A stretch of 64,000 nt of DNA, taken from Bacteroidota bacterium (GTDB taxonomy: Bacteria > Bacteroidota > Ignavibacteria > SZUA-365). Location of the stretch: positions 35,669 through 99,668 of the forward strand of contig QKAF01000099.1 of NCBI GenBank assembly GCA_003246455.1, read 5' to 3'. The notes below the pieces were generated by a model. That model searched no databases, was not told the origin of the DNA, and saw only the letters and a program-made list of their open reading frames with translations. The position numbers and the translations under genes were made by a program. This document shows, in pieces, positions 40,586 to 57,897 of this stretch; the first letter of the stretch is position 1, and the number at the start of each line of letters is the position of its first letter.

Positions 40586-41665
40586 ATGCTTCAACGTCTC
40601 CCAGGCCATCTGAACTCCCGCCGCCCTCCCCTGATTCCGCCAGCGCCGCTGTCCGCCGTGCGCATCGGCATCCTGTCGCTGATATTCGCGGTGGCGCTCG
40701 CCGCGTCCATGCGTGCACAGGAAGTCCGTTTCTCGGGATTCGGGGCAACGGGTATCCGGATGTACGACCGCAATCCCGTCGCGGAATTCAACCAGGAATA
40801 TTTCTACGAAGGGAAACTGCAGGCGGATATCCGGCTCTCGAAAAAAATCGACGCACAGCTGGATTTCCGCGGCGATTCAGACGAGCGGACGGTCGTGCTC
40901 CGGGAATTCAGCGTGAAATTCGACTACTTCACCTACGCCCGCATTAAATTGGGAAACGTGAAGAAACCGTTCAGCGTCGAAGGACTGGCAGACAGGGATG
41001 AGTACATCCCCGTCTTCGACAGCCATCTGCACAGGCGGAACGAAGAACTCGGGTACGCGGGCCGCAACGTCGGCCTGCTGGTGTATTACAATGCGAATCT
41101 CGAAAAACGCCCCGAACTGCCTTTCTCCTGGGCCGCCGGCGTTTTCAAAAACAATTCCTATCTCACGAGCGCTTATGCCCGGGGGAGCTGGCATTCAGGC
41201 TCCTGGACGACCTCGCTGGGATACGCCCTGCTTTCGCGCAGCCACGACGACGCCGTCACGACGCAGGGGATCTCGGCCGATTTCGGGTATCGGACGCCCG
41301 CGTTCGAAAGCCAGGTCGAGGCGATGCTCATTCAGGATCCCGACGAGCAGATCCGCCGACGCCTGCTGGGTCAGGACGATGCCGTCTGGTCGCCCGGCGT
41401 ACGCTCGTTGACCGCGTTCCGCATTCCCGTCGACGGCGACATCGTCGAGACCGTCGAACCGTATCTGCTTCTCGGGTGGTCGGCTCCGGATGCGGAAACG
41501 ACGGAATGGCACCGGCTGGAAATCATGGCGGGCGTCAACGTCTTCGTCGACGACGACGTGCGCCTCCGCCTCACTGCGGACGGCCTCCTCACGCGGGACA
41601 GGTATTCCGACGACTACAGCACGCATGGTTCCGTTTTCTCATTCGAAGTCTTCATACGATTCTGA
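40586..41665 (+). CDS. Putative outer-membrane beta-barrel (porin-like) protein
   Basis: Signal-like segment IGILSLIFAVALAASMRAQ, an alternating-strand pattern and the C-terminal ...FSFEVFIRF ending in Phe. The stop TGA shares one nucleotide with the next ATG. Confidence 0.5.
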   Translation: MLQRLPGHLNSRRPPLIPPAPLSAVRIGILSLIFAVALAASMRAQEVRFSGFGATGIRMYDRNPVAEFNQEYFYEGKLQADIRLSKKIDAQLDFRGDSDERTVVLREFSVKFDYFTYARIKLGNVKKPFSVEGLADRDEYIPVFDSHLHRRNEELGYAGRNVGLLVYYNANLEKRPELPFSWAAGVFKNNSYLTSAYARGSWHSGSWTTSLGYALLSRSHDDAVTTQGISADFGYRTPAFESQVEAMLIQDPDEQIRRRLLGQDDAVWSPGVRSLTAFRIPVDGDIVETVEPYLLLGWSAPDAETTEWHRLEIMAGVNVFVDDDVRLRLTADGLLTRDRYSDDYSTHGSVFSFEVFIRF

Positions 41666-42795
41666 TGCGCCGCCTCATTCTTCCCCTGCTCCTCCTGGTG
41701 CTCGCGGGCTGCGAAGGCACCATAGATTCGGATCCGGTATTCCAGATCACCGGCGTGCCGCTTTTCGACACGTGGATCCCGCATGACCGGTATGTCTCGA
41801 TGCTCAGCAACCGCTGGAGCGACGAGGAAGTGCCGGTGCAGATCTATCTCGACGGCAGCAAGTTCGAGGGGACGGTCGAACCGCAGGGTGCGGGCTCGCG
41901 CTACCACGTCCGCTGGTCGTACAAGCTCGAACTTGCAGACGGGCAGACGATCAACGGACTGCGGGAATCGAACCTGAGCGCGCAGATTTTCGACAACACA
42001 CACCTTCGGACGACGCTGGCCGTGCATGCGTTCGGCGCGCTCGGTTTTCCGACAATCGCCGCATATCCCATCTACCTGCGCATCAACGGTGCCGCGAAGG
42101 GCCTGTACCAGCAGGTCGAACGGATAGACGAGGACTATTTCCGGCGGCGCGGGATGCCGGTCCATGAACTGATAAAGTGCGGATTCGGCTCCCGTTTCAC
42201 GTTTGAAGGCGGAAACGACCTGGAAGACACGTTTGAAAGAGTCCTTCCGGAATCGGGGAATCTCAACGATTTCGGGGATTTTCTCCACGCGCTCGACACG
42301 GCCGATCCTGACCGGCTGTACGAGCAGGTCTCGCCGTTCCTCGATATCAATCAGTATCTCCGCTACCACGCGCTTTCCTCGATTCTGAATCACGTGGACG
42401 GGTTCAGTAACAATCTCTACTTCTACCGTCCCGCCCCCGGGTCACCGTACACCATCATTCCCTGGGATTTCGACAAACTGCTTTATGGCGCGGACGACGT
42501 CGGGCTGGCCGGAGACAACGAGATCATCCGCAAACTGCTGCAGAACGACTCCTGCGTCGCGGTGTACAAACGCGAGGCCTATCGGGCGCTCGATGTCGCG
42601 CTCGCCGATGCGGAGCTCAATCCGCTCCTCGACAGCACCATCTCACGGATTGCGGAAGCATTCCGTCAGGATCCCTGGCTCGGCGGGGCAGGAATTTCCC
42701 TCCCTGATGAATCCAATCGTCTGAAGATGTATCTTACGAGAAGAAAAGATTACTTCCGTCAGCACCTCGAGACAATCAAAAGGTATCCCCGTTAA
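41665..42795 (+). CDS. CotH-family (atypical kinase fold) lipoprotein
   Basis: MRRLILPLLLLVLAGCEG lipobox. The CotH block INQYLRYHALSSILNHVDGFSNNLYFY...IIPWDFD. Confidence 0.7.
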   Translation: MRRLILPLLLLVLAGCEGTIDSDPVFQITGVPLFDTWIPHDRYVSMLSNRWSDEEVPVQIYLDGSKFEGTVEPQGAGSRYHVRWSYKLELADGQTINGLRESNLSAQIFDNTHLRTTLAVHAFGALGFPTIAAYPIYLRINGAAKGLYQQVERIDEDYFRRRGMPVHELIKCGFGSRFTFEGGNDLEDTFERVLPESGNLNDFGDFLHALDTADPDRLYEQVSPFLDINQYLRYHALSSILNHVDGFSNNLYFYRPAPGSPYTIIPWDFDKLLYGADDVGLAGDNEIIRKLLQNDSCVAVYKREAYRALDVALADAELNPLLDSTISRIAEAFRQDPWLGGAGISLPDESNRLKMYLTRRKDYFRQHLETIKRYPR

Positions 42796-42806
42796 GCTCA
42801 CACCAC

Positions 42807-43679
42807 GTGCATAACAGAATCACAATCATCCCCCGTACCCTCCTTCTGACCTTCCTGCTTGTCGCAGCTCCCGTTCAACCCAGGACACAGGCACAGTTCA
42901 GGGAATCCCAGGCCGGCCCCGAGCGTTTTGCCGGGCATATGCTTGAAAGCGCGAACGAGGTCTTCGCCTGGTACGACGCCCCTGTTTTTCTCGCCTACAT
43001 CGTCAACCGATTCGAATTTGTTCCCCCCACAGCCAAGCCCGTCTCGCTCGAAGCGAGTGAGGCAGAGGAAGCGATTGCACGCAGTCTCGCGGTCAGCGGA
43101 TCCGTTTCCGTCGGCAGCCTGGAACCCTTCACCATCCCGCACCTGATCATCGGAGCGCAGCTGGCGCACGCGGTGGGGAGCGAACTGTTCGTCGACGGTG
43201 CCGACGCGCGCGGCGAACTCCGGAACGCGATGGGTCTCTACAAAACCCTCATGTACACGCAGGTGGCGACGCAGACCATCAAGAACCTGGTGCACCGCGT
43301 CCGGCCTGACGGAAGCGACGACAAGAGTTTCTTCAGCGGGCACAGTTCCATATCCTTCGCCACGGCCGCGTACCTGCAGCGGGAAGCCGACGACGCGCTG
43401 GCACAGTGGGAAGCGCTGGAAAACCGGCCCGTCTTGCGCAACGTGCTCCGCGCCGGAAGCGCCGCGGTGCTGTACGGCTGGAGCGGGTACGTGGGCTACA
43501 GCCGCATGCGAGACAACAAGCATTTTCTCAGTGATGTCGCCGTCGGCGCGCTCGTCGGCGCGGTGATCGGGAATCTCGTCTACGACGGTCTGCACGCGGA
43601 AGGCGGAAACCTGCTGCCGACCGTATCCGTGTGGTCAGACGAGCGCGGACCGCAGATCGCCCTGCAGATGCAATTCTGA
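42807..43679 (+). CDS. PAP2-superfamily phosphatase, secreted (paralog 1)
   Basis: All three PAP2 motifs: KNLVHRVRPD, FSGHSS and SRMRDNKHFLSDV. N-terminal signal sequence. GTG start at 42807. Confidence 0.8.
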   Translation: MHNRITIIPRTLLLTFLLVAAPVQPRTQAQFRESQAGPERFAGHMLESANEVFAWYDAPVFLAYIVNRFEFVPPTAKPVSLEASEAEEAIARSLAVSGSVSVGSLEPFTIPHLIIGAQLAHAVGSELFVDGADARGELRNAMGLYKTLMYTQVATQTIKNLVHRVRPDGSDDKSFFSGHSSISFATAAYLQREADDALAQWEALENRPVLRNVLRAGSAAVLYGWSGYVGYSRMRDNKHFLSDVAVGALVGAVIGNLVYDGLHAEGGNLLPTVSVWSDERGPQIALQMQF

Positions 43680-43789
43680 TACGCGCACGCTTTTTTCCCT
43701 TTCCATTGATGTTCGGTCTTGGTAGTTTTTGTCCTGCGCTCGCACCGCAATCACGAAAAACCCCTCTGTTCACAGTAACCGGTTCATGC

Positions 43790-44626
43790 ATGCGGATCTG
43801 GATCTCCGTCATTCTTCTCGCCATACTGTCCGCTGGACTTCACGCGCAATCCGCGCGTGCGGATCTGAACTGGGCCGAGCGGATCGGCGGCGATGCATGG
43901 AACGGGGCGATGAACGTGACGGAGTGGTACGACGCGCCGCTGACTCTCGTCTTTCTCGCCCGCAATTATTACAAGGACGATAACTCCTCCACCAAGATCA
44001 TCACCTACCCCGCGATGCCGTTCGAGCAGAAAATCGCCGGGGACATCGGTGTGACGGGGAATAATTCCCTCGGCAGCATGGATGCCTGGATCCTCCCCGG
44101 AATCATCCTCGGGTCACGCGTGCTCTGGGCCGTCGGGGGAAATCTGCTCGGGGACGAAGACATGAGCAGCGAATACGCGCATGCATGGACATTCTCCCGC
44201 GTGCTGATGTACAATTACCTCGCGACGGAACTGGTAAAGAATACGGTGCGCCGCCCGCGCCCCGACGGCGGGGACACCAAGAGTTTTTTCAGCGGCCACA
44301 CCTCCACGGCCTTCGTCACAAGCGCGTTCCTGTATCGCGAGGCAGACGACCTGCTCGATCAGAATATGGAAGCGGGGTTTTCGCGCGACGCACTCAAAAT
44401 GACGAGCTTTACGGTCCTCTACGGGTGGGCGGCGTACGTAGGATACAGCAGGATGGCAGACAACAAGCATTATCTGACCGACGTCGTCGTCGGTGCGGCG
44501 GTAGGGACGCTGCTGGGCAACGTCGTGTACGACCATTACTTCGGCGGTGATGCCGAACAGCTGCCGATGATCGGTCCGGGTTTCATCGACGGTCAGCCCG
44601 CGCTTTCATTCTCCCTGAAATTCTGA
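43790..44626 (+). CDS. PAP2-superfamily phosphatase, secreted (paralog 2)
   Basis: KNTVRRPRPD, FSGHTS and SRMADNKHYLTDV motifs. Signal peptide MRIWISVILLAILSAGLHAQ from the ATG at 43790. Confidence 0.8.
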   Translation: MRIWISVILLAILSAGLHAQSARADLNWAERIGGDAWNGAMNVTEWYDAPLTLVFLARNYYKDDNSSTKIITYPAMPFEQKIAGDIGVTGNNSLGSMDAWILPGIILGSRVLWAVGGNLLGDEDMSSEYAHAWTFSRVLMYNYLATELVKNTVRRPRPDGGDTKSFFSGHTSTAFVTSAFLYREADDLLDQNMEAGFSRDALKMTSFTVLYGWAAYVGYSRMADNKHYLTDVVVGAAVGTLLGNVVYDHYFGGDAEQLPMIGPGFIDGQPALSFSLKF

Positions 44627-44634
44627 TTCCCTTC

Positions 44635-47600
44635 TTACCTGTAGGACGGCGCCGATTTGATATGAAGGAGATGTCCTTCGATCCGATCGACGAAGTTCAG
44701 CTCCGCGTTCGGAGCGTCCTCGAAGTGCCAGTACCCGACCAGATGGTCGGGCGGCGGTTCGGCGCCGCGCGCGAGACGTTCGATCTCTTCGTCGCACAGA
44801 AGCCGCCGCCAGATTGCGATATCCGCGATGCGCCGTGTCTGCCCGAGGGATTCCCGCATGACGTCGTGCAGACTCGCGGAGAACATGGTGTATTTGTCGT
44901 TGAATATCCCGAACGACATCCCCTCATACCGGTAATGCCAGTCGTGGTAGTCCGCTCCGTCGACGTTGCAGGGAGAGAGCGAGCCGCGCATCTCCCCGTC
45001 TACGAACACCTCGCGGATACCTGAGTACAGCACGCGGATGGCGATGTGGTGCCACCCGGGCGCAATGGAGCCCAGGATATCGGAGGCGCATCCGCTGTAG
45101 GAGGTTGCAACCGTGTCGCTGCTGAAGCTGACGTAGTGGTCCAGGTTCTGGAACACGAACGCCGTGCTCCGTTCCACGGTACTGTACCACCAGAACGCGA
45201 AGCAGGCGTCGCTCTTTTTTGGCAGCAGCTGCTGTGCGCAGTAAAGGTACGAGCCGGCTGGCAGGGTCAGGGCGGGGATTCCAAGCGGTCCGGCGCCGAG
45301 ACGCGGCAGGGATCCCTCGGGCTGAATCGGCGCCGTTGAGCGCACCTGTACGGGACGGTATCGCATTTCCGCGTCCTGCGAGGCGTTGCTGCCATTGAAT
45401 GCCGTGGCCTCACAGTTGGTTTCCATATCGAACACCGCTTGCAGCTTCGGCACGTTCCCCGGCAGCGACTCGTGCATGACCCGACTGATATCGTCTTCGT
45501 CGAGCATACTCCACCATATCCGGAAGTTGTCGACCTCGCATTCCAGATGGCGGTTCGCACGCGACGAATCCGCATACGCCCCGAGACTGACATACGGCGT
45601 CATGCGGTACCGAAGATCCAGCGTCGCCTGCCGTGAGAAAGCGAGCTTCCCGTCAAGATAGAACCGGATGCTGTGACGCGGGATCGAGTACGCAAGGGCG
45701 ATGTGGTGCCATTGATTCGGTTTCATCGGCATCGCGAGCGGAACAGTGAAGCGTTCGTTGCCGAGCATGATCTGGGGACGGCCGTCGCTGAAGTTCATCA
45801 GCAGTGTTTCCATGCCGGGATGCGTGGCGGAGCTGCGACCATTGTGGAGGAAACAGCCGTCCCAGTCGAGCGAGCGAACCCAGCTTTCCACCGTGAGTTC
45901 CCCGCTGGCGAAGGCGAGGCTTTTCGCGCCCCAGGACAGGTAATCCGGACCTGAACTCAGGCGAAGCGCATAGCCGGCCGACATCGCGCGTCCCGCGCTC
46001 CCGACCAGTTTCAAGCGAAAATACTCCTCGCCCCCGGGTTCGTCCCGGATGACCAGCGCCGCCTCTTTTTCCGATGCCGCGCTCGTCGGCGCATACATGA
46101 CGGTCACGGGCAGCGGCACGGTGCTTTCCAGGATATTCTCTCCCGCCCCCGAGCTGACGTACCATTCGCCATACCCGGGGCCTTCGATCGCGACGTACAC
46201 CTCGCGGTCATTCGGGGTCATGTTGTACAGCGAAAAACTGCGGGAGAATCCATCGCCGACCTCCAGGTCCCCGAAGGGGACAACGGGATCGCGGACGATG
46301 AGTCCGTCACGGAACGCCCATTCGAGCGAATCGTGCGGGTTGAAGACGATTGCGTTATTGCCGACTTCGATTCCCCGGACGATTTCGAGATTCGGGAAGG
46401 CCACAAAGGATCGGTAGAGCATCCCCCCCGCGACGAGCAGAACAATCAACGACAGCACCAGAATGAGGGACCGTGCGTGACTTCTCGCAAACGTCTGGAA
46501 ACGGTCGTACGGATTGCGCACCTCCGATTCGACGACATGTCCCGGGCGAAAGCAGTCGGAGAAATGTTCTGCCGTGTAGACTTCGAACCAGCGCTGCGGG
46601 TACTCCTGCTGGAGCTGCTGAACGTAGCGCTTCGCCTCCTCGATGAAATCTCCGGGAATGACGACACGGCGGAGGGGCGAGTGGAACGCCAGTTCGAGTT
46701 TTCTGCGCAGCGTTTCCCACGATGCGGTTTCCAGCATGCCGTGAGAATCGAGCGAGGCGATGCAGGCGGTGTCCGGGGAGAGGGCCCAACGGACACGGGC
46801 ATTCACCCGTCCGCTGAGATGGCAGACCAGTCCGACGGTCGCCGCCAGTCCGAGAGAACCGCCCGAGAACGCGGCGTGCAGATCGATAAACTGGAAAAAC
46901 ACCTCTCGTCGATCGAAACGATAACCCGTCCGCTGCTGCGTAAACGCGGTCGCCATATCGTTCGCCCCCTGCAGCTGGAGCCGTGTCTGATCGGCATCCG
47001 CACCGAGTACGTTGTTGATATGGATGCCGCCCGCACTGCTCCGCCGGGAAGAGATTTCCATCTGAAGCACCGCCCCCGACGCCGCGCCCTCGTCCTGATC
47101 CGTTTCCAGGAGCACGACGGAGACGGCATCCTGACGCGAGAAGATCGCGCGCCAGCGCTGCCGCGCCAGGAACAGCGGATGGTTCTCTGTGAGGATATCC
47201 TCCTGGATCTCGCAGTAGGCCTCGAACATTCCGTACGGCGCGGGGCCCGCGCCGTAAACCCGGCGCCAGGCACGATCGTCCGGATCATGCAGGGCCGCTC
47301 CTCCCTGACGCAGAAACGCATGCATTCCGCGCAGGTCGGCGGCATACGCACACGAAAGACATCCCTTGATCAGGGCTTCGTCTTTCGCCAGCTGCAGGGT
47401 GGAAGCATCTTTCAGGTCCCCGGAGAGGTCGTTGAGAAACGCGACGGACGTGGTCCACAGCTGGGGATGATGCCCCTGGGTGTACGGGTGCTGAAGCAGT
47501 CTGAGGAGGGTGCGCGACAAGGGCAGCAGGTACATCTTCCGCCACGCGATAGGGAGATGCGCGGTATCGCGGTAAAACGAAATCAGGGCGCTGAGCTGAA

Positions 47601-47691
47601 GCTGAGGTGAACGCCGGGAATGCAGGAGCGAATCCAGCGCGTTTGCAGCGGCGTCAAGATCCCTTGGAGTCTCGAGGCGTCCAGCAGACAT
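44635..47691 (-). CDS. 1018-aa single-pass membrane protein: helical N-domain, Lon-protease-like (S16) domain, TM, Ig-like beta-sandwich, 2x LamG (paralog B)
   Basis: Lon_C-like blocks AVSVVLLETD...GAVLQMEI...INNVLG...FSGGSLGLAATVGL...IASLDSHGML...RRKLELAF...RRVVIP. TM helix SLILVLSLIVLLVAGGMLY (aa ~407-427). FGDLEVGDGFSRSFSLYNMTPN is an ASH/choice-of-anchor-D-like domain. Two Laminin_G_3-like domains are present (WHHIALAYSIPRHSIRFYLDGKL...VDNFRIWWSMLDEDDI; GWHHIAIRV...VFVDGEM...IADIAIWRRLLCDEEI). No Walker A motif. Confidence 0.65.
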   Translation of the reverse strand: MSAGRLETPRDLDAAANALDSLLHSRRSPQLQLSALISFYRDTAHLPIAWRKMYLLPLSRTLLRLLQHPYTQGHHPQLWTTSVAFLNDLSGDLKDASTLQLAKDEALIKGCLSCAYAADLRGMHAFLRQGGAALHDPDDRAWRRVYGAGPAPYGMFEAYCEIQEDILTENHPLFLARQRWRAIFSRQDAVSVVLLETDQDEGAASGAVLQMEISSRRSSAGGIHINNVLGADADQTRLQLQGANDMATAFTQQRTGYRFDRREVFFQFIDLHAAFSGGSLGLAATVGLVCHLSGRVNARVRWALSPDTACIASLDSHGMLETASWETLRRKLELAFHSPLRRVVIPGDFIEEAKRYVQQLQQEYPQRWFEVYTAEHFSDCFRPGHVVESEVRNPYDRFQTFARSHARSLILVLSLIVLLVAGGMLYRSFVAFPNLEIVRGIEVGNNAIVFNPHDSLEWAFRDGLIVRDPVVPFGDLEVGDGFSRSFSLYNMTPNDREVYVAIEGPGYGEWYVSSGAGENILESTVPLPVTVMYAPTSAASEKEAALVIRDEPGGEEYFRLKLVGSAGRAMSAGYALRLSSGPDYLSWGAKSLAFASGELTVESWVRSLDWDGCFLHNGRSSATHPGMETLLMNFSDGRPQIMLGNERFTVPLAMPMKPNQWHHIALAYSIPRHSIRFYLDGKLAFSRQATLDLRYRMTPYVSLGAYADSSRANRHLECEVDNFRIWWSMLDEDDISRVMHESLPGNVPKLQAVFDMETNCEATAFNGSNASQDAEMRYRPVQVRSTAPIQPEGSLPRLGAGPLGIPALTLPAGSYLYCAQQLLPKKSDACFAFWWYSTVERSTAFVFQNLDHYVSFSSDTVATSYSGCASDILGSIAPGWHHIAIRVLYSGIREVFVDGEMRGSLSPCNVDGADYHDWHYRYEGMSFGIFNDKYTMFSASLHDVMRESLGQTRRIADIAIWRRLLCDEEIERLARGAEPPPDHLVGYWHFEDAPNAELNFVDRIEGHLLHIKSAPSYR

Positions 47692-47727
47692 TCACTCTCC
47701 GTTCAGAACAGGATAGGGTGGCGACGG

Positions 47728-50700
47728 TTATTCCCACCCGTAGACCTGCTTGACATGCAGGAAACGGTGGTTGATTTCATCAATATAGTTATTATTCGCG
47801 TCAGGAAGCTGCTCGAGCCGCCAGGACGCCACCAGTCCTTTTTTCGTGACGCGTTCTTGATCGATCAGATCGGCAATCTCTTTTTCCGAGAGAATGCGTT
47901 TCCAGACGTGAAGGGAACCGTAGCTTCGGGTATGGGACAGCGTGGGATGATACCAGTCATAGTACTTTGATGCAAGCTGCTGTTCCTTGTCGAAGCGGAA
48001 GCCCAGCATCATTCCCTCGAAGAGCGCATGCCAGTCCTGTCGCCCGGAAGCGACCGTACGCGATTCCGCCTTCAGCTGCCCGTCGGTATAGAACGCGACC
48101 TTGCCGTCTGCGGTCACCGTGCAGACTCCGGTATGCCACCCCGGTTCGATGTCGTAGGCCAGTTTTTTCTGCATGGTGAACAGCATGTTATTCTCGATGG
48201 AAATCCACCCACTTTCCTTGAGCACGTAATTGAAGTGTATCGCGGGTTCAGCGTCCTGCAGGAAAAGGAACGCGAAGGTCGCGTCCGTGTACCTCGGCAA
48301 TACCGGACGGACGGCGACAAGGTATCTCCCTGATGTGAGCGCAATCGCCGTATCGCCCCGGTCTCTCGTCAGCAGAAAGATATCCCTGCCCCGCGGCTCG
48401 AGACGGAGGTCGGAACGCACCAGAACGGGACGATGCAGCAGCGCACCGCTGTGGGCCTGCGTGTTGGCGTTGAACAACGTGTTTTCAACACTCGCGTCCA
48501 CGTCCCAGTACCCCGCCAGGTCCGGTGTAAGCCCCGACAGCCGGCGATGCATCGTCTGCCGTACCTCCTCCACGGTGCGGAAGCGATGCCACAGACGGAT
48601 TTCATCGATGTCGCCACGAAAGTGCAGATCGGACGTCGTTCCCGGGTTTCTCGCTCCGATAGTCACGAAGGGCGTTCCCGGACCGTCAAAGAGGAAATAG
48701 GCCTGCCGGTTCTCCAGTTCCTCTCCGTTGAGGTAGACGGCGATCCTGTGACGCGGGATGGAGATTGCCAGGGCGAGATGCATCCAGCGGCCGACTGCCG
48801 CCGCCTGGCTGCCATTCAGCACGAACATCCCGATCGCCGAACCGACCCGGTAATACATCGTGTCGGGAGTGACGAATCCGAAAAACAGGTCCTCGATCTC
48901 CGGTTTCTGCGAACCCGACTGGCCGTTGTGCAGGATCATCGCGTTTTTCAGCGGAGCATTGGGACGGATCCAGCATTCGAAGGTCGCCTCCTTGGTGCCG
49001 GAGGCGGTGATATCGAAAGCGGTGCTGCGCTGCCCGAAGTGAATCTGGTCGTCCCGTCCGTCGAGACGCAGTGCATAGCCGGCGGAGAGCGGCGATCCGG
49101 CCGCGCCCTCGAAGCGCAGGCGGTACAGCGCCTCGCCTGTGACCGGGTTCCGCAGCACCAGGGCGGCATTCTTGGAACTGCCTGCGTCCATGGGAGCGAA
49201 CATGACGGCGATACTCCGATTCTCCGCCGACGGGATGTTGAGCCGATCGTCTGCCGAATTGATATACCAATCGGTGGAATCCGGTCCCTCGATCGAAAGC
49301 CGGAGGTTCAGATTCGACGGCGTCATATTCCATATCTCGAAATGCCGTGTGAACCCGTCGCCGATTTCCAGATCTCCGAATCCCACATTGTTGTCGACAA
49401 GGGTCTTGCCGTCCCGGAAGCACCAGACGAGTGAGTCCTTGGGATTGAACACGATCGAGCTCGAGCCGACGCTGAGTCCCATCGTCTGTTCGAGATTGGG
49501 ATAGTCGTAGTACGCCCGGTACGCGAAGTATCCCCCGCCGCCGAAAAGAATCACGATCAGGAGAAGCAGGAAGGCAACGCCGTGGCGCACGAGAGATTCC
49601 CGCATGCGTTCCATGCCGCCGCGCGGATGGATGGCGAACACGCCCGCGTTCGTCTCCAGGTCGCGCACATGCGAGACGCCCAGCACCTCGAGACTGCGCT
49701 TCGGATGATCGCGCTGCAGCTGCTGCAGGTACAGCAGCGCTGATTCGCGGTGCGGCGCGGGGATGACAATTTTTTCGACCGGCGAACAGAACGCGGCCCG
49801 CAGTTTCTGCTCGATCAGATCCCAGCTGCCCGCCTCCACCGTCCCGTCTGTCGCGAGACTGCCGACGCAGGCAACCGTCGTGGGCAGGGTCCATCGCTGC
49901 GGAAGATTCATGTAATGCGTAATGCCTGCCGTGATCCCCGCTGCCGCTGCACAGCCGAGCGAGCCGCCCACAAGCGCGACGCTGGTTTCATGCAGGGAAA
50001 AATGGTAGCGGCGGTGTTCGGGCGTTTTCCCGAACCTTTCGGCGATCAGTCCTTCGCTGATCGTCTGCGCGCGTTTCAGCTGCTCGACGGTTTCGTATCC
50101 CTGGTCCCCGAGCAGGTTGTTGATGTTGTTTTCTCCCTGGCCCCCCTCCTGCGAAAGAATATCCATCAGCATCACGCGTCCGGCCGCATACCGATCATCG
50201 CCGTCCGCCTCCAGCAGGACGACCGCGACGGCGTCGGTGCGCCGGCGGTATTCCTCCCACTGCTCGAGCACCGTGGTGAACTCCGCAGGTACCGCGTCGT
50301 ACCGATTCCGCAGGACACCGACATAGGCCTTGAAGACGCCGAATGCCGTGGCCGACGCGCCGAACACGGAACTCCACTCCCCTGCGTCGAGCGCCCCTTC
50401 GAGGAGTTTCCATTCCACGAGGAACTCGTGCAGCTCGCGCAGCGCGGAAACGTAGGCATGCGAACGGATGGTATGCTCGACCGCGAGGGTATGCAGTTCG
50501 TCCATGGCCAGCCCTGCCGTGGCCCATGACTGGGCGGATATCCTGCGGTAGAACGCATACGCGTCTCTCCAGACCGGCGCCGGCAGGTTGCTCAGAGACG
50601 AGAAGCGCAGCAGTTCGAGGAATGAGGGAGCGAGCGGCAGCAGGTATCCGGAAAGCCACGATGCCGGAAGCCGGCAGGTATGTCCCCAGAATTCCGTGAT

Positions 50701-50823
50701 ATGCAGAAAGCGTTTCTGCGGGGAGGGCGTGATGAGCAGCGTCCTGTCGAGCGCACGCGCGGCGGCATCCAGCTCCACGGGAGTACGGATATACCCCGTG
50801 GGCCCGTTGTCATTCAACGGCAC
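47728..50823 (-). CDS. 1031-aa single-pass membrane protein: helical N-domain, Lon-protease-like (S16) domain, TM, Ig-like beta-sandwich, 2x LamG (paralog A)
   Basis: Colinear with paralog B over its full length. Blocks include AVAVVLLEADGDD, LVGGSLGCAAAAGI (Ser288, codon 49960-49962) and IEQKLRAAF...EKIVIP. TM helix GVAFLLLLIVILFGGGGYFAY (aa 415-435). Also FGDLEIGDGFTRHFEIWNMTPSN, WMHLALAISIPRHRIAVYLNGEEL...GDIDEIRLWHRFRTVEEV, and a second LamG ending in SLHVWKRILSEKEIADL. GTG start at 50821-50823; no nearby ATG. Confidence 0.65.
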   Translation of the reverse strand: MPLNDNGPTGYIRTPVELDAAARALDRTLLITPSPQKRFLHITEFWGHTCRLPASWLSGYLLPLAPSFLELLRFSSLSNLPAPVWRDAYAFYRRISAQSWATAGLAMDELHTLAVEHTIRSHAYVSALRELHEFLVEWKLLEGALDAGEWSSVFGASATAFGVFKAYVGVLRNRYDAVPAEFTTVLEQWEEYRRRTDAVAVVLLEADGDDRYAAGRVMLMDILSQEGGQGENNINNLLGDQGYETVEQLKRAQTISEGLIAERFGKTPEHRRYHFSLHETSVALVGGSLGCAAAAGITAGITHYMNLPQRWTLPTTVACVGSLATDGTVEAGSWDLIEQKLRAAFCSPVEKIVIPAPHRESALLYLQQLQRDHPKRSLEVLGVSHVRDLETNAGVFAIHPRGGMERMRESLVRHGVAFLLLLIVILFGGGGYFAYRAYYDYPNLEQTMGLSVGSSSIVFNPKDSLVWCFRDGKTLVDNNVGFGDLEIGDGFTRHFEIWNMTPSNLNLRLSIEGPDSTDWYINSADDRLNIPSAENRSIAVMFAPMDAGSSKNAALVLRNPVTGEALYRLRFEGAAGSPLSAGYALRLDGRDDQIHFGQRSTAFDITASGTKEATFECWIRPNAPLKNAMILHNGQSGSQKPEIEDLFFGFVTPDTMYYRVGSAIGMFVLNGSQAAAVGRWMHLALAISIPRHRIAVYLNGEELENRQAYFLFDGPGTPFVTIGARNPGTTSDLHFRGDIDEIRLWHRFRTVEEVRQTMHRRLSGLTPDLAGYWDVDASVENTLFNANTQAHSGALLHRPVLVRSDLRLEPRGRDIFLLTRDRGDTAIALTSGRYLVAVRPVLPRYTDATFAFLFLQDAEPAIHFNYVLKESGWISIENNMLFTMQKKLAYDIEPGWHTGVCTVTADGKVAFYTDGQLKAESRTVASGRQDWHALFEGMMLGFRFDKEQQLASKYYDWYHPTLSHTRSYGSLHVWKRILSEKEIADLIDQERVTKKGLVASWRLEQLPDANNNYIDEINHRFLHVKQVYGWE

Positions 50824-50883
50824 ACGCCCTCCACTGCTGTGCGATCAGAACGTCGTAGAGATGGCATCATCTGCCCGATTGTG

Positions 50884-51387
50884 TCACGCGGAGAGGAGAA
50901 TCACTTTCATCGGCTCGATGTCGATGCTCGAGGTCCCGATCTCGAATACTCCATTGGAATCAGGCACGAATTCCCGGTCGATACCGTCGAAGCGGATACG
51001 GATATGCTGATCCTCGCTTCGTTCCGCGATAAAGAACCCGGTCAGCTGCTGCTCGAGGGTGTCTTCAATGACGCGAAGGATCGCGGCATTGTTGTTGAGA
51101 TACCATGTCCGTCGCAGACGGTACTGCGGGACGGCGGCTGCGGATGACTGTGCTGCCAGCCGATACGCGGTCTGGCGATACCCGCTGCCTTCTGACGGAA
51201 CGGCATCCGACTCCTGCATCATCTCTCCCGCGCTGGACAGGAAGTCCATGGCAAGCGCGAACTGCTCCCTGCAAAAAGAACAGGCGTGCATATGGGCGGA
51301 CGGTTCACCGCGCCTTGCGAGGGACAAGAGCGTCTTCAGATCGTGGTGCTCCATAATACCTGCTCCGAGATTGAGTGTATTATCCAT
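50884..51387 (-). CDS. Soluble protein with ZAS-type (HxxxCxxC) anti-sigma zinc motif
   Basis: ATG at 51385-51387 (MDNTLNL...); an alternative ATG lies at 51352-51354. H32-MHA-C36-SF-C39 (nt 51271-51294) matches HxxxCxxC exactly, with His14/His15 upstream as a possible fourth ligand. There is no TM segment. The C-terminal ~80 aa are beta-rich. Confidence 0.5.
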   Translation of the reverse strand: MDNTLNLGAGIMEHHDLKTLLSLARRGEPSAHMHACSFCREQFALAMDFLSSAGEMMQESDAVPSEGSGYRQTAYRLAAQSSAAAVPQYRLRRTWYLNNNAAILRVIEDTLEQQLTGFFIAERSEDQHIRIRFDGIDREFVPDSNGVFEIGTSSIDIEPMKVILLSA

Positions 51388-51423
51388 ATTTATTAATCCG
51401 TGCAGTTCGCACCCTGTGGCCAA

Positions 51424-51441
51424 AATTTTTCATGAAAAATT
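51424..51441. promoter_or_regulatory. Perfect 18-bp all-but-two-AT palindrome AATTTTTCATGAAAAATT in an AT-rich intergenic island
   Basis: Read directly; its reverse complement is identical. It lies between the sigma-like gene stop (51482) and the ZAS-protein ATG (51387), in an otherwise GC-rich sequence. Confidence 0.6.
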
Positions 51442-51481
51442 GGATTTATTTTGTAAAACACGCAATGGAAGCGGTTCCGCG

Positions 51482-52525
51482 TCATTCGTCCGCCGCAGGA
51501 TCCTGTTTGAGGTGTTTCTGCGCTTCCTGGACGACGCGTTCATACATGTAGGCGAATTTTCTCCGATATGTTGCCCTGAAACGTTCCGGGGAGAGTCCCG
51601 GCATGTACAGACGCAGGAACGAGTACCCCGAGCGGGCGTCGCTTCCCCGCTGCAGATCGAGAAAGGTGGACCGTATGGCGAGCAGCATGAGGTCGAATTC
51701 CCAGGCGCTCAGCCGTTCGCGCTGCACGTACAGATTCTCGAGCGAAGGCCGCACGGTTTCGATCGCCGTGTGGATGATGTGCGAGAGTGCGGACACGTCA
51801 TAGGAGATGGAGGCGTCGGGCTGCTCGTGCTGCAGCGTCGATTCGAGGTCGTGTCCGAGATACTCGACGGTTATCCGGATCACGTCCATCTCAAGGACGG
51901 CCTTCCGGTACTGATCCTGTTCTCGAAGAAAGCGGATTATGCTCCGAAAAATCTCGACAGCATCGGATCTGTTGTGGGCGCTGAAATCCGCGAGGGAATT
52001 CCGAATCACCTCCGGCGGCGCGGCTTCCTTGTGCAGATCCGCCAGCGCGGGGGATTCGACGACGTACCAGCGGCCGTCGAGCATGTCGCGGATCTCGATG
52101 CTCTCGGTCTTGCGCACGTACTTGCGCACCGCCCGCATCAGCGTGTGCTGGAGAGGATTCACCTCGGCGAAGATGCGCGGGAAATGCCGCTGGACGTTGT
52201 TGAAGATCACCGCGTCGTACAGGGACAGCAGGTCGACGTCGGATCCTTCCGCCACGGGGAGAAGCGCGTTGCGCAGCGTGCCGCAGCAGGTGTCTTCGCC
52301 CTCGGCCAGCAGCTCCGCGGAAATGTCGTACGAAAGATCCCGCAGTGTCAGTCCGAGGGTGTGCAGTCGGTAGTTCTTCCGTGCGCTGATCCAGCGGACC
52401 GCCTGCTCGGTGCGCGCAATGGTGCGGAGGATCAGTGCTTCCGCCATGGACGCATTCATCGGTCCGGCCAGCAGGGCTCGCAGCAGAGGGAGAAGATCGT
52501 GAGACGAATCGGCCGACATGCGCAT
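51482..52525 (-). CDS. Hypothetical protein, possibly a highly divergent sigma-70-family factor (347 aa from ATG 52525)
   Basis: First gene of the unit, immediately upstream of the ZAS-motif protein. There is weak resemblance to sigma region 2 (LRDLSYDISAELLAE ... AVIFNNVQRHF) and region 4 (RERLSAWEFDLMLLAI ... LSPERFRATYRRKFAYMYERV). The call rests on pattern recognition only. Confidence 0.3.
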   Translation of the reverse strand: MRMSADSSHDLLPLLRALLAGPMNASMAEALILRTIARTEQAVRWISARKNYRLHTLGLTLRDLSYDISAELLAEGEDTCCGTLRNALLPVAEGSDVDLLSLYDAVIFNNVQRHFPRIFAEVNPLQHTLMRAVRKYVRKTESIEIRDMLDGRWYVVESPALADLHKEAAPPEVIRNSLADFSAHNRSDAVEIFRSIIRFLREQDQYRKAVLEMDVIRITVEYLGHDLESTLQHEQPDASISYDVSALSHIIHTAIETVRPSLENLYVQRERLSAWEFDLMLLAIRSTFLDLQRGSDARSGYSFLRLYMPGLSPERFRATYRRKFAYMYERVVQEAQKHLKQDPAADE

Positions 52526-52544
52526 ATTCCGTTGGGTACAGACG

Positions 52545-52552
52545 AAAATATA
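52545..52552 (-). promoter_or_regulatory. Candidate Bacteroidota-type -7 promoter element (TATATTTT on the - strand) for the four-gene unit
   Basis: It matches 7 of 8 positions of TAnnTTTG, about 20 nt upstream of the ATG at 52525 and just downstream of the strong terminator. Confidence 0.25.
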
Positions 52553-52569
52553 CAGTTTTCCGCAGGCGC

Positions 52570-52607
52570 AAAAAAAACCCGCCACCCGTAATCAGCGCGG
52601 TGGCGGG
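52570..52607 (-). terminator. Strong intrinsic terminator ending the suf/Rrf2 transcript
   Basis: CCCGCCACC (52578-52586) pairs with GGTGGCGGG (52599-52607). On the - strand the stem is followed by T8 (A8 at 52570-52577 on +). An A5 run on the other side makes it potentially bidirectional. Confidence 0.85.
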
Positions 52608-52628
52608 AAAAATCCTCGGACTGACGAT

Positions 52629-53105
52629 TCAGGGTGCGGGCAGTTCCACGCTTTCCCGCGGGACATGCACAGACGGCACATGCGCCGCGTGTTCCCCTGT
52701 CAGGAGATCGGCCAGCGTGGTCGATTCCAGCACCCCGTCAATGGCGGTCTGAACTCTCCGCCACAGGGGCCGAATGGAGCAGGCAAACGTGTGCGCGCAG
52801 ACTTCTTCAGTTCCGGAGAAATGGTCACAGAATCCGGGTTTGTAAAACCGCCCGCCCAATGCCGCAAGGACATCGCTGAGAACGATCTCGTTCACCTGCC
52901 GGGAAAGCGTGTATCCCCCTTCCTGTCCGCGCACGCTTTCAACGAACCCGTTAATGCGCAGGATGCGCAGAAGCTTCGCGACATACGCCTGAGACAGGCC
53001 TTCCGCGTCGCTCATTTCCGGGATGGTCATCGAGGCCTCCGGCCCCTTGCGTGCGAGCTGCAGGAGGCAGCGTAATCCGTATTCTTCCTGGGAACTGAAC
53101 TTCAT
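52629..53105 (-). CDS. Rrf2-family transcriptional regulator (IscR/SufR-like) with Cys cluster
   Basis: ATG at 53103-53105. MKFSSQEEYGLRCLLQLAR...YVAKLLRILRINGFVESVRGQEGGYTL is a winged HTH. The Cys ligand candidates are CDHF...C.H.F.C. The 5' part of track ORF 52629..53543 is not supported. Confidence 0.8.
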   Translation of the reverse strand: MKFSSQEEYGLRCLLQLARKGPEASMTIPEMSDAEGLSQAYVAKLLRILRINGFVESVRGQEGGYTLSRQVNEIVLSDVLAALGGRFYKPGFCDHFSGTEEVCAHTFACSIRPLWRRVQTAIDGVLESTTLADLLTGEHAAHVPSVHVPRESVELPAP

Positions 53106-53118
53106 TGCCGCGCCCCGA

Positions 53119-53652
53119 TCAGTTGAGCCGCGGAATGCGGGATCCGCATGTCCGCTCATATTCCAGTTTATCGTACTCCTCTTTCGGGACCGACGGTCCC
53201 TGCCGCGTGCAGAGCTGCGCGAAGCTGTCCTGGAGCTCCGCGGCGATTTCCGCGGCGCTTCGTCCTTCGATATCATGCCGTTGGAGCATGGACACGAGCT
53301 CTCCGTTCTTGAAAATCGCCATGCTCGGGGACGACGGCGCGTAGCCGGTAAAATACCCGCGCATGCGATCGACAGCATCCCGCTCCTGTCCGGCAAAGAC
53401 CGTGACAAACCGATCGGGGATGACCTCGTGCTGGAGCGCCTGCGTCGCAGCGGGACGTGCGCTGCCCGCGGCGCAACCGCAGACGGAATTGACGACGACA
53501 AACAGCACCCCGGGGGTCTCACGAACCGCGGTGTCGACCGCATCGGGCGAAAGCAGCTCTTCGAAACCGACCGCGGTCAGCTCGTCGCGCATGGGCTGGA
53601 CGGCCGTCTGATCGTACATCGGACCGCGTCCTATGGAAAGGTTCTGGAACAT
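53119..53652 (-). CDS. Bacilliredoxin-like (BrxA/BrxB, DUF1094) thiol-disulfide oxidoreductase with C-terminal extension
   Basis: The block PMRDELTAVGFEELLSPDAVD...VVNSVCGCAAGSARPAA...VFAGQERDAV...PSSPSMAIFKNGELV carries the CGC redox motif. The alternative start is ATG 53617-53619. Confidence 0.7.
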   Translation of the reverse strand: MFQNLSIGRGPMYDQTAVQPMRDELTAVGFEELLSPDAVDTAVRETPGVLFVVVNSVCGCAAGSARPAATQALQHEVIPDRFVTVFAGQERDAVDRMRGYFTGYAPSSPSMAIFKNGELVSMLQRHDIEGRSAAEIAAELQDSFAQLCTRQGPSVPKEEYDKLEYERTCGSRIPRLN

Positions 53653-53723
53653 GTATGTAAAACTCCTTTCGAAAACGAATCTGCACCGGATGCGAATGCG
53701 GCACCCGGCGTATGGGACAGTGA

Positions 53724-54062
53724 TTAAAAGAAACCCAGCTCAAGACGCGCCGCTTCCGACATCATCGACGGGTTCCAGGGCGGATCCCAGACGATATCGA
53801 GGTCGACGCCCGTGACGCCGTTGATCTGACCGACCTTCTCCTTCACCTCCGCCGGCAGCGACTGCGCGGCGGGGCAGTTGGGCGACGTCAGCGTCATCCG
53901 GATGGACACGCCGCCGTTCGATTTCACGCGGATCTGGTAGATCAATCCGAGTTCATATATATCGATCGGAATTTCCGGATCGTAGCACGTCTTGATCGCG
54001 TGGACGACGTTGTCGTCTATTTCCTGCAATTGCTCGTTTGTCAGCATGTGATCTTCCATCAT
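53724..54062 (-). CDS. sufT: DUF59/MIP18-family Fe-S assembly protein (SufT-like)
   Basis: The block DPEIPIDIYELGLIY...MTLTSPNCPAA is the DUF59 signature. It lies within the suf operon. Confidence 0.75.
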   Translation of the reverse strand: MMEDHMLTNEQLQEIDDNVVHAIKTCYDPEIPIDIYELGLIYQIRVKSNGGVSIRMTLTSPNCPAAQSLPAEVKEKVGQINGVTGVDLDIVWDPPWNPSMMSEAARLELGFF

Positions 54063-54511
54063 TCGGTCGACACCTTGTCATTCTCCCCCTGAAGCGCGCC
54101 GTGCATGGTATGCCACGGCAGCGTCGCACATTTCACGCGCACGGGAAATTCCGCGACACCGGCAAAGGCCGCAAGCTTGCCCAGCTCGGCGATATGCTCT
54201 TCCGCCGCAATCCGACCGGTGACGATACCGGTGAACAGTTCGAACAGCCGCTCGGCTTCATCCCGCTTCTTGCCTTTCAGGATGGCACTCATGATCGACG
54301 CGGACGCCTTCGAGATGGCGCATCCGCTGCCTTCGAAGCTCACCTCCGCGATGACGTCGCCGTCGAAACGCAGATAAAAGGTGTAGTGGTCTCCGCACAG
54401 CGGGTTATACCCGTCGAGCGTGGAGTCCGCATTCTCCATCTTGTGGAAATTGCGCGGGTGCTTGTTGTGATCAAGAATCACTTCCTGGTACAGATCACGA
54501 ATTTCATCCAT
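54059..54511 (-). CDS. sufU: SufU/NifU-like Fe-S cluster scaffold / sulfurtransferase
   Basis: LYQEVILDHNKHPRNF, NPLCGD and GSGCAISKASAS blocks. Confidence 0.85.
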   Translation of the reverse strand: MDEIRDLYQEVILDHNKHPRNFHKMENADSTLDGYNPLCGDHYTFYLRFDGDVIAEVSFEGSGCAISKASASIMSAILKGKKRDEAERLFELFTGIVTGRIAAEEHIAELGKLAAFAGVAEFPVRVKCATLPWHTMHGALQGENDKVSTE

Positions 54512-55782
54512 CAGGTAAAAACCTCCAGTACACTTTCAATGCCGTGCGCGAGCGCGTCGACGTCTTCCATCGTGTTGTAGAATGAAAACGACGCGCGCGC
54601 GGTGGCGGGGATTCCGAAATGCTGCATGACCGGCTGGGCACAGTGATGTCCCGCGCGCACGGCAATACCGTGCTGGTCGAGGATCGTGCCGATATCATGC
54701 GGATGAACCGCACAGAGCGTAAACGATATCACGCTGGCTTTATGGGTCGCCGTGCCGATGATGCGCAGGGCGTCGATGGCTTCCAGCTTTCGTGTCGCGT
54801 ACTCGAGGAGTTCGTTCTCGTGTGCGGCAATCGCCGCGATGTCCAGGCTGCGGAAATATTTCAACGCCGCGGCGAGTCCTATCGCGCCGGCGATATTCGG
54901 CGTCCCGGCCTCGAATTTGAACGGAACGTCGTTGTAGACGGTCCGTTCGAAACTCACGGAGAGAATCATATCACCCCCGCCCTGGTACGGCGGCATGTCG
55001 TCGAGCAGCGCTTTCTTTCCGTAGAGGACACCGATGCCTGTCGGGCCGTAGATCTTGTGCCCGCTCAGGGCGAAGAAGTCGCAATCGAGTTCCTGCACGT
55101 CGACGGGCATGTGCTGGACGGACTGGGCGCCGTCGACGAGCACGGGAACGCCGTGACGATGCGCGATCTCGATGATCTCCTTCACCGGGTTCACCGTTCC
55201 CAGCGCATTCGAAACGTGCACGATGGAAACGAGCTTTGTGCGCTCGCTCAGCATGGGCTCGAAGGCGTCGAGAATGAGTTCGCCATGTTCGTCGATCGGG
55301 ATCACCCGCAGCGTTGCCCCCTTCTCGCGGCAGATCATCTGCCAGGGAACGATGTTGGCATGGTGCTCAATTGCGGAAACGATGATCTCATCGCCCGGAC
55401 CGAGCTTCGAGCGGCCGAAGGTCTGTGCAACGAGGTTGATCGCCTCGGTGGTGCCGCGCACGAAAACGATCTCTTCCTCGCGCCGCGCGTTGAGAAACTG
55501 CTGCGCCGTACGGCGGGCATCCTCGTACAGATCGGTCGCGAGCTGGCTCAGGTAGTGCACCCCGCGATGCACGTTCGAATACTCCTCGCTGTAGAAGCGG
55601 GCGACGGTGTCGATCACGACCTTGGGCTTGTGCGTGGACGCGGCATTGTCGAGATAGATCAGCGGACGTCCCCGCACGGTCTGCCTGAGAGCGGGAAAAT
55701 CGGCGCGCACGCGCCAGGCATCGAAAGCTGCAGCGGAAGGCGCCGCGGCGACGGGGGCTTTATCGTTCCACATGGTACTCAT
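54511..55782 (-). CDS. sufS: Cysteine desulfurase, SufS type
   Basis: PLP-Lys block FFALSGHKIYGPTGIGVLYG and catalytic Cys block RAGHHCAQP. The ATG at 55780-55782 overlaps the sufD stop. Confidence 0.95.
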   Translation of the reverse strand: MSTMWNDKAPVAAAPSAAAFDAWRVRADFPALRQTVRGRPLIYLDNAASTHKPKVVIDTVARFYSEEYSNVHRGVHYLSQLATDLYEDARRTAQQFLNARREEEIVFVRGTTEAINLVAQTFGRSKLGPGDEIIVSAIEHHANIVPWQMICREKGATLRVIPIDEHGELILDAFEPMLSERTKLVSIVHVSNALGTVNPVKEIIEIAHRHGVPVLVDGAQSVQHMPVDVQELDCDFFALSGHKIYGPTGIGVLYGKKALLDDMPPYQGGGDMILSVSFERTVYNDVPFKFEAGTPNIAGAIGLAAALKYFRSLDIAAIAAHENELLEYATRKLEAIDALRIIGTATHKASVISFTLCAVHPHDIGTILDQHGIAVRAGHHCAQPVMQHFGIPATARASFSFYNTMEDVDALAHGIESVLEVFT

Positions 55783-57113: not shown

Positions 57114-57129
57114 AGTCTCTGCCGCCTCC

Positions 57130-57897
57130 TTATACCGTCTCGGCGGTGGGTTCCTCGAGATCCTTGACCCAGTCGTAGCCCTGTGCCTCGAGGTCGAATG
57201 CCAGGTCCTTGTCACCGGATTTGACGATGCGCCCGTTCACCAGGACGTGCACGAAATCCGGCACGATGTAATCGAGCAGGCGCTGGTAGTGCGTCACGAC
57301 GATCGCGGCATTGTCGGGGGTATGCAGTTTGTTGACGCCGCTGGCCACGATGCGCAGCGCATCGATATCGAGCCCCGAATCGGTCTCGTCGAGGATGCTC
57401 AGCAGCGGGTTCAGCACCGCCATCTGGAGAATTTCATTTCGTTTTTTCTCCCCGCCCGAAAATCCTTCATTCACGGGCCGGTTGAGGAACGAGGGGTCCA
57501 TTTCCACCAGTTTCATTTTCTCTTTCACAAGTGCCAGGAAATCGAAGGAGTCGTACTCTTCCTCCCCATGGTATTTCCGCACCGCATTCAGGGCGGCTTT
57601 CAGGAAGTAGGTGTTGCTCACGCCGGGAATTTCCACCGGATACTGGAACGCCAGGAACATCCCCTCGCAGGCGCGGGCGGCGGGATCGAGTTCGAGCAGA
57701 TTCTGGCCGCGGTAGAGCACTTCCCCTTCTGTGACTTCGTAGATCTCTCGTCCGGCCAGGACACCGGCGAGCGTGCTCTTTCCCGAACCGTTCGGACCCA
57801 TGATCGCATGGATTTCCCCGGGGTTGACCGTCAGGTTGATGCCCTTGAGGATTTCCTTCCCCTCGACCCGGGCGTGCAGATTGCGAATTTCCAGCAT
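57130..57897 (-). CDS. sufC: Fe-S cluster assembly ATPase SufC
   Basis: Walker [14 protein letters not shown] signature [13 protein letters not shown] and Walker [13 protein letters not shown]. Confidence 0.95.

Follow-up and report, generated by a model that had tools for sequence, protein, structure and literature searches.

What do four adjacent genes do whose products are currently annotated as hypothetical proteins or merely as 'LamG domain-containing protein'? The genes lie in a 64,000-nucleotide stretch of contig QKAF01000099.1 from a Bacteroidota bacterium (hereafter the window; all coordinates are positions in it unless a relative's locus is named), where they form a unit of four co-directional open reading frames (ORFs), all on the minus strand, bounded upstream by a strong terminator and downstream by a convergent PAP2 gene. 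We refer to them as gene 1 (51482-52525; 347 residues, or 345 in the database call, which starts at 52519), gene 2 (50884-51354), gene A (47728-50823; 1031 residues) and gene B (44635-47691; 1018 residues). An initial annotation had read them as a sigma-like factor, a soluble zinc-motif anti-sigma protein and two paralogous Lon-like membrane proteins, together making up a transmembrane signalling system that works by regulated proteolysis, and our results partly support this interpretation. The reading that we favour, tentatively and at a little short of an even chance, is that the unit is a three-component transmembrane signalling module consisting of an output protein (gene 1), a zinc-motif antagonist (gene 2) and a Lon-type sensor protease whose gene is duplicated here. 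Going by the sequences and models, the signalling would be of the regulated-proteolysis, anti-sigma type, in a new variant built around a Lon-fold domain that has no ATPase.

The two large proteins are colinear along their entire length, with 34% identity, and were correctly described before as full-length paralogues that lack a signal peptide. When the four proteins of the unit were searched as single sequences against Pfam, NCBIfam and the PDB, only Laminin_G_3 was found and no protease; Pfam Lon_C, too, matched neither A nor B on its own. We built an AlphaFold model of A residues 1-445 from 19 homologues. The model was confident, with a predicted local distance difference test (pLDDT) value of 85.8 and a predicted template modelling (pTM) score of 0.82. 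In it, residues 15-194 make up a helical domain, residues 196-400 form an alpha/beta domain, and 415-440 are one long helix. A Foldseek search of the PDB with this model returned Lon protease domains for all of the top 50 matches (E 8e-9 to 3e-7), and comparison with the protease (P) domain of E. coli Lon (1rr9, 3wu6) gave TM-scores of 0.75-0.78 at a root-mean-square deviation of 3.2-3.7 Å. The alpha/beta domain (49624-50238, minus strand) is assigned to the Lon (MEROPS S16) protease fold from this search and from sequence profiles against the PDB. The first profile of the N-terminal half, made before distant homologues were available to it, gave only a weak match to AfLonB (E 0.14), while a profile of diverse members (A12) matched Lon protease 2 (8dvh, E 3e-9), MjLon (1xhk, E 2e-6) and AfLonB (E 1e-5); the sequence link to Lon thus reached significance only once the distant homologues had been added.

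In the profile alignment, the GGS288LG motif of A falls on GPSAG/GDSAS and K340 falls on the catalytic Lys. The checked codons of these residues are 49960-49962 for Ser288 and 49804-49806 for Lys340, and their counterparts in B are Ser279 (46855-46857) and Lys331 (46699-46701). The Ser-Lys dyad is kept in A, in B, in the second-copy systems described below and in all homologues examined, down to ~15% identity. The S16 domain with a GGSLG serine that the initial annotation had proposed was thus recovered by AlphaFold, by Foldseek, by the profile and by the alignment of the dyad. The absence of an AAA+ module was also confirmed: there is no Walker A motif in the whole unit, AAA families of Pfam have no match in it, and the modelled N-terminal domain is purely helical. 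The Walker B-like sequence AVAVVLLEAD of A forms the first strand of the Lon domain, and A and B do not have the AAA+ module with Walker A and B motifs that characterizes LonA and LonB holoenzymes. On the predicted structure and the profile alignments, A and B contain a genuine domain of the Lon fold, in which the Ser-Lys dyad is conserved, and no ATPase. The all-helical domain that precedes it (50242-50781, minus strand; AlphaFold secondary structure, pLDDT mostly 83-96) has no recognised relatives and is conserved in distant homologues at two metagenomic loci (L083 and L087). A weak match of the helical-domain profile to mitoribosomal mS29/DAP3 (E 0.012; A residues ~114-206, window 50242-50478) was judged to be due to chance.

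A single transmembrane (TM) helix follows at residues ~413-435 of A (49519-49587, minus strand), located by hydropathy and lying in the continuous model helix 415-440. Four Arg residues stand on its N-terminal side and a signal peptide is absent, so that the prediction places the N-terminal, Lon-like half in the cytoplasm and the Ig/LamG half in the periplasm, which agrees with the orientation first proposed. B has the corresponding helix at ~408-430 and a Laminin_G_3 domain at 582-736 (PF13385, E 3.8e-18, above the cut-off as in A). The predicted ectodomain of A begins with an Ig-like domain of the ASH or choice-of-anchor-D-like kind (residues 477-560; 49144-49395), for which the matches are below threshold (Cep192_D4 at E 1.4e-5, 25.7 bits against a cut-off of 35.5; choice_anch_D at E 0.003). 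It continues with a first LamG domain (609-754; 48562-48999; PF13385 Laminin_G_3, E 1.2e-19) and a second LamG-like domain at ~846-1007 (47803-48288), all on the minus strand. The second was not detected by Pfam alone and is recognised as an internal repeat in the C-terminal 240 residues by hhalign of the two ectodomain halves (92.7% probability, E 4e-7). Hence, of the ectodomain initially described, the first LamG domain stands by Pfam and the second as a repeat, whereas the Ig-like domain is seen below threshold only. Among all components of the unit, the first LamG domain is the only one to reach a Pfam or NCBIfam cut-off.

The homologue alignment favours a start of gene 2 at the ATG at 51354, which gives 156 residues, and alternative starts are an ATG at 51387 (167 residues) and a TTG (ORF 50884-51423; 179 residues); the ORF called at first is real, but the length of 167 residues given for it is the less favoured one. 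In the 156-residue form an exact HMHACSFC stands at residues 21-28, and the four ligands H3, H21, C25 and C28 are invariant across 21 homologues (alignment A2), which is the ligand pattern of the ZAS anti-sigma factors. Beyond the ligands the sequence runs through a variable linker to an invariant RLAA(Q) motif, and it closes with a conserved domain at the C-terminus, probably beta-rich by its sequence. Neither gene 1 nor gene 2 encodes a hydrophobic segment or TM helix, and a profile search of the PDB with gene 2 found nothing. The HxxxCxxC motif and the lack of a TM helix are thus as first noted, and the motif is real and conserved in the alignment; the assignment of gene 2 to the anti-sigma type, which is drawn from that motif, is putative.

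Searches of 5.8 billion proteins gave 28 homologues of A, all of 1018-1045 residues and all from uncultured Bacteroidota. Genes 1 and 2 and a large gene stand together in 16 of 18 species-level loci, copies away from the suf gene cluster included, a recurrence for which a gene-neighbourhood check had been suggested at the outset; in 13 of the 18 the position is directly after suf-Rrf2. Divergent second systems (L021-L024) lie elsewhere in the genome, away from suf, and one of them is in the same metagenome-assembled genome (MAG) as a suf-linked copy. The tandem of A and B is found only in the closest relatives (L007-L011), and the presence of two large genes, although true of the window, does not extend to most relatives, which have one. 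In L015, gene B is reduced to a remnant of ~85 codons (L015 13124-13378), which together with the loss of gene 1 in L011 indicates ongoing gain and loss of parts. In L016, the orthologues of genes 1 and 2 are separated by an inserted gene (L016 7274-9154), whose 626-residue product has seven 'DxNGDGxxD' repeats of the FG-GAP-like kind and, at its C-terminus, a type IX secretion tail.

Gene 1 encodes a soluble, mostly helical protein of a large family: an exhaustive HMMER search (E<=1e-3) gave 637 clusters at 50% identity, nearly all of 335-350 residues, whose named members come from Melioribacteraceae, Ignavibacteriaceae and Bacteroidota MAGs. Using a 14-sequence alignment, we scanned metagenomes for gene 1 homologues and obtained a distant set of 34 non-redundant loci in which the gene 1 homologue is full and is followed by a sufficient length of DNA. 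In 25 of them HxxxCxxC occurs within the first 90 residues of an ORF that starts within 650 nucleotides downstream of gene 1; the corresponding background is ~5% of all ORFs, a figure that counts those 25 cases too. These partners are of three kinds, and the window's gene 2 can be aligned with the N-termini of all of them. Partners of the first kind (417-803 residues) combine H3...H29/30xxxCxxC, at the canonical ZAS spacing, with an FG-GAP ectodomain and a single TM helix near residue 100, which, as far as sequence can tell, is the layout of a classical membrane anti-sigma factor; zf-HC2 matches them below threshold in 4 of 8 cases (E 0.01-0.11, 13-16 bits against a cut-off of 22.2). Those of the second kind are soluble (211-289 residues) and are followed by a Lon-like homologue of 700-773 residues that shares the helical and Lon domains and the TM helix and has an FG-GAP-like ectodomain (L055, L076, L083 and L087), so that the trio recurs in loci far more distant than the close relatives; further Lon-like homologues are present in L054, L060 and L061, and a divergently transcribed one in L027. 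Behind partners of the third kind, which are soluble and of ~220 residues, the next genes encode REC-DUF4388 response regulators, and a gene for a sigma-54 activator lies upstream.

The initial annotation had reasoned that a soluble antagonist needs a separate sensor, and the distant loci bear this out, in that the gene-2-like protein of other relatives carries the TM helix and FG-GAP domain itself. Where the antagonist has no TM helix or sensor, the sensor domain is fused through a TM helix to the Lon-type protease domain. Since in most loci members of the gene 1 family have an HxxxCxxC partner even when a Lon-like gene is missing, the gene 1/gene 2 pair is, on this comparison of loci, the conserved core; its third component is an input that can be exchanged, the protease being one of several such inputs. 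This modular pattern supports the signalling reading, with the Lon-like protein as putative sensor and input. The LAA of the linker is invariant in the window's gene 2 family and is present in four of the five distant soluble partners, as against none of the three that go with response regulators; four of those five adjoin a Lon-like gene, and in L046 the contig ends before a third gene.

Some of these loci hold further genes. In L072 (5214-12250) a sigma-54-dependent response regulator, checked with Pfam, lies upstream of the gene 1 homologue and its soluble zinc-motif partner, and two REC-DUF4388 genes lie downstream, while in L071 (5171-12411) the upstream ORF matches the L072 regulator in size and position and one REC-DUF4388 gene lies downstream. 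In L027, from the Melioribacteraceae, a gene 1 homologue and a TM/FG-GAP zinc-motif partner are followed by a 3770-residue FG-GAP/Por_Secre_tail protein (L027 12740-21032), and the divergently transcribed Lon-like homologue, of 700 residues, is upstream (L027 7218-9320). In L050, a gene 1 homologue and its partner of the TM type are immediately followed by genes for a canonical extracytoplasmic function (ECF) sigma factor of 190 residues and a small HxxxCxxC/TM anti-sigma protein (L050 9284-10383); an ECF/anti-sigma pair and a gene 1/partner pair therefore coexist there side by side.

How, then, might the parts work together? In the mechanism that we propose, gene 1 would be the cytoplasmic output protein and would control transcription when free; its most likely identity is that of a transcription regulator, and a sigma-like factor that has diverged greatly is possible. 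Gene 2 would act as its soluble zinc-motif antagonist by binding to it. A and B would provide the input: their periplasmic Ig and LamG domains (FG-GAP domains elsewhere) would bind an envelope ligand, and binding would alter how the cytoplasmic Ser-Lys protease assembles or how active it is. Lon P-domains function as rings, and A and B might co-assemble into one. Under control of the ligand, the protease would cleave gene 2 within its disordered linker, perhaps at RLAA or close to it, and so inactivate gene 2 and release gene 1. The cut would perhaps leave an ...LAA end of the kind that is recognised by ClpXP, an idea for which the ssrA, RseA and RsiW degrons provide the basis. A broader form of this proposal treats the whole gene 1 family as an unrecognised class of regulators of the Bacteroidota/Ignavibacteria group, possibly highly divergent sigma-like ones, that would be held by ZAS-type antagonists and served by three interchangeable inputs, namely an antagonist-fused sensor, response regulators, or a LamG- or FG-GAP-driven Lon-type receptor that makes an activating cut in a soluble antagonist; taken as one joint claim, we regard it as possible but on balance improbable.

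Several observations weigh against the proposed module. Gene 1 shows no detectable similarity to any DNA-binding family: Pfam and NCBIfam have no match for the window protein, for 17 close members or for 81 diverse members of its family, and profile searches of the PDB with gene 1 found no sigma factor. The hhalign comparison with an ECF sigma alignment gave a probability below 1%, for a shallow alignment of 3-4 sequences that comprised E. coli RpoE (identical to 1or7), AlgU (from a PDB alignment), SigW and, later, the ECF sigma factor of L050. A hidden Markov model of ECF sigma factors scored only near 0 bits against the 81 members in hmmsearch with --max. The AlphaFold model of gene 1 was poor (six-sequence alignment; pLDDT 59.6, pTM 0.39), and Foldseek on this poor model gave no match at E<0.5, Thermus sigma-A being reached only at E 1.4-7 with probability <0.1. 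The initial description of gene 1 as sigma-like was consequently not reproduced by Pfam, NCBIfam, PDB profiles or hhalign. In addition, the putative promoter upstream of gene 1 resembles the housekeeping type and not that of an autoregulated ECF gene. As regards gene 2, zf-HC2 (PF13490) did not match the window protein or 20 homologues at E<=5, and the first ligand stands 18 residues before the motif, compared with ~25-27 in classical ZAS proteins. The correlation of LAA with a Lon-like gene comes from eight distant sequences only. Finally, the association is not uniform, in that one clade (L003, L020 and L026) has a Lon-like/LamG gene of 1043-1045 residues directly after Rrf2 and no adjacent gene 1 or gene 2, and L011 has no gene 1, the gap from Rrf2 to gene 2 being only 378 nucleotides (L011 5503-5881).

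Two of these points bear on an alternative in which the substrate of the protease is gene 1 itself or other proteins on the cytoplasmic side of the membrane, gene 2 is an adaptor or inhibitor, and the outcome is protein turnover and not the release of a transcription factor. The searches found no DNA-binding signature in gene 1, and the clade that has the Lon-like/LamG gene without genes 1 and 2 beside it indicates that the protease can stand alone. Still, in most loci the gene 1 family is paired with HxxxCxxC proteins even where there is no Lon-like gene, and the TM-type partners show an anti-sigma architecture, so we consider this alternative unlikely.

A different role for the large proteins would be that of a non-catalytic docking or partner-switching platform, whose Lon-like domain holds or releases gene 2 or gene 1 according to the state of the ectodomain. 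Lon-fold pseudoproteases exist, the proteins have no ATPase with which to unfold a substrate, and their large, conserved helical N-terminal domain could serve as a binding surface. What is hard to explain without catalysis is that Ser and Lys are invariant at the catalytic positions over the whole range of homologues, and we give docking a small chance. An equally small one goes to the idea that the genes form a conserved cluster without a signalling role, for example in envelope biogenesis, in the processing of surface proteins or in defence. All the evidence for signalling is contextual, and FG-GAP proteins with signals of the type IX secretion system (T9SS) recur beside related loci. Against this stand the position of the protease domain on the predicted cytoplasmic side, away from secreted proteins, and the variant in which response regulators replace the protease, which points to signalling; a search with PADLOC gave no matches, for which reason we rejected the defence-system reading.

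With the signalling module as the preferred reading, one close comparison is with the pairs of ECF sigma factors and ZAS proteins (RsiW-SigW, RseA-SigE, ChrR-RpoE and RsrA-SigR). In both, a regulator gene is followed by that of a protein with an N-terminal H...HxxxCxxC, and in relatives the HxxxCxxC partner crosses the membrane once and bears a sensor domain outside the cytoplasm. Activation through proteolysis of the antagonist, as proposed here, would be a further likeness, and the degrons of RseA and RsiW that are exposed after cleavage resemble the Ala-rich motif of gene 2. However, gene 1 encodes ~340 residues and is not recognisable as a member of the sigma-70 family, and the window's antagonist is soluble with a shortened ligand spacing. 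In the known anti-sigma pathways a membrane-spanning antagonist is cut outside the membrane and then within the bilayer, by a site-1/site-2 cascade (DegS or PrsW with RseP or RasP), whereas here we propose a cytoplasmic Lon-type domain fused to its own sensor. Sensor and antagonist would thus be separate proteins, and the protease would be a Lon-type domain tethered beneath the membrane.

On the side of the protease, archaeal LonB likewise has a membrane-anchored Lon protease domain that faces the cytoplasm, and the P-domains of AfLonB and MjLon are among the best sequence matches of the Lon-like profile. LonB differs from A and B in having a working AAA+ module with inserted TM segments and no ectodomain, and in being a quality-control protease. 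SepM, an S16 protease that is anchored by a TM helix and has a Ser-Lys dyad, performs a single specific cut in signalling: it processes the peptide pheromone CSP-21 so that the ComDE two-component system is activated (PMC11197336). A and B are like SepM and YlbL in the lack of an ATPase, the single TM anchor and the Lon-type Ser-Lys dyad, while the specific cut of SepM is paralleled by our proposal only. SepM has 346 residues, a PDZ domain and its protease domain on the cell surface; in A and B, by contrast, the predicted cytoplasmic protease domain follows a helical domain of 180 residues, an Ig domain and two LamG domains lie outside, and Pfam gave no PDZ match, so that the TM-PDZ-extracytoplasmic Lon order of SepM and YlbL is absent. 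The LonC proteins, such as MtaLonC, are ATP-independent Lon-like proteases that degrade unfolded substrates, and like A and B they join a Lon protease domain to an extensive N-terminal part that has no functional AAA+ motifs (PMC3391209). Unlike A and B, which have a TM helix, a large ectodomain and a purely helical N-terminal domain, LonC is soluble and keeps a degenerate AAA-like fold. LonC and SepM are therefore precedents for Lon-type proteases without an ATPase. Literature searches found no described system of the composition seen here, in line with what the initial annotation had stated. If the proposal is correct, it would describe a new receptor design in which ligand binding outside the cell controls a Ser-Lys protease inside, and a new role for Lon domains that lack an ATPase. 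It would also offer a handle on the large unannotated gene 1 family, which is apparently a common regulatory output in Ignavibacteria and related Bacteroidota.

The boundaries of the unit bear on whether it should be read together with the genes upstream. An intrinsic terminator of the suf-Rrf2 operon lies at 52570-52607 on the minus strand, with an 11-bp stem (CCCGCCACC.CG / CG.GGUGGCGGG) followed by U8 and a computed folding energy of -22.2 kcal/mol. Between it and gene 1, ~20 nucleotides upstream of the start of gene 1, is a promoter-like box, GTATATTTT (52545-52553, minus strand), of the Bacteroidetes -7 'TAnnTTTG' type. A comparable hairpin and T-run occupies the equivalent place in seven loci (L005, L008, L009, L010, L014, L015 and L018), and a GTATATT(T) box stands upstream of gene 1 orthologues in nine (L001, L005, L008, L009, L010, L014, L017, L021 and L022); among close relatives the hairpin and the GTATATTT box mostly occur together upstream of gene 1. 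At the other end, 8 bp separate the PAP2 ORF, whose last position is 44626, from the stop codon of gene B. The terminator, the 8-bp distance and the common direction of the four genes had all been given correctly at first. From the terminator and the conserved GTATATTT box we conclude that the unit has its own putative promoter, and, to judge from the sequence of the region, it is self-contained and separate from suf, as had been claimed. The weakest alternative, in which the unit is tied to suf and gene 2 is an RsrA-like redox sensor, based on thiols or Fe-S, that tunes Fe-S metabolism or the response to oxidative stress, can point to the same-strand position after sufBCDS-NifU-FeS_assembly_P-Disulph_isomer-Rrf2 in the 13 suf-linked loci, to the 2His/2Cys site of gene 2 and to the fact that some ZAS proteins are redox switches, but we find it very improbable given the strong conserved terminator and separate promoter box between suf and the unit, the location of the second copies (L021-L025) and of all distant homologues away from suf, and the collinearity of the whole region, convergent PAP2/CotH/GH31 genes included, within the lineage, which means that the adjacency may be inherited synteny. 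A functional operon with suf was likewise judged unlikely, because of the terminator and the copies that lie away from suf.

Regarding the neighbouring genes, a complete suf cluster lies directly upstream (52629-59470, minus strand) and consists of sufB, sufC, sufD, sufS, NifU/SufU, FeS_assembly_P, a disulphide-isomerase-like gene (PF06491) and the Rrf2 regulator, in a gene order common to L001-L020. No Rfam elements were found within 44000-53500. A CotH-family gene and two paralogous PAP2 phosphatase genes (41476-44626, plus strand) converge on gene B. In relatives such as L005/L006 the synteny reaches further and takes in genes for a GH31 glycosidase, an SSF transporter and a SpoIIE-domain protein, and the window's ORFs upstream of CotH are of matching size. 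CotH and two PAP2 genes occupy the equivalent place in L005, L013, L014 and L018, and in L016 it is taken by CotH and one PAP2 gene.

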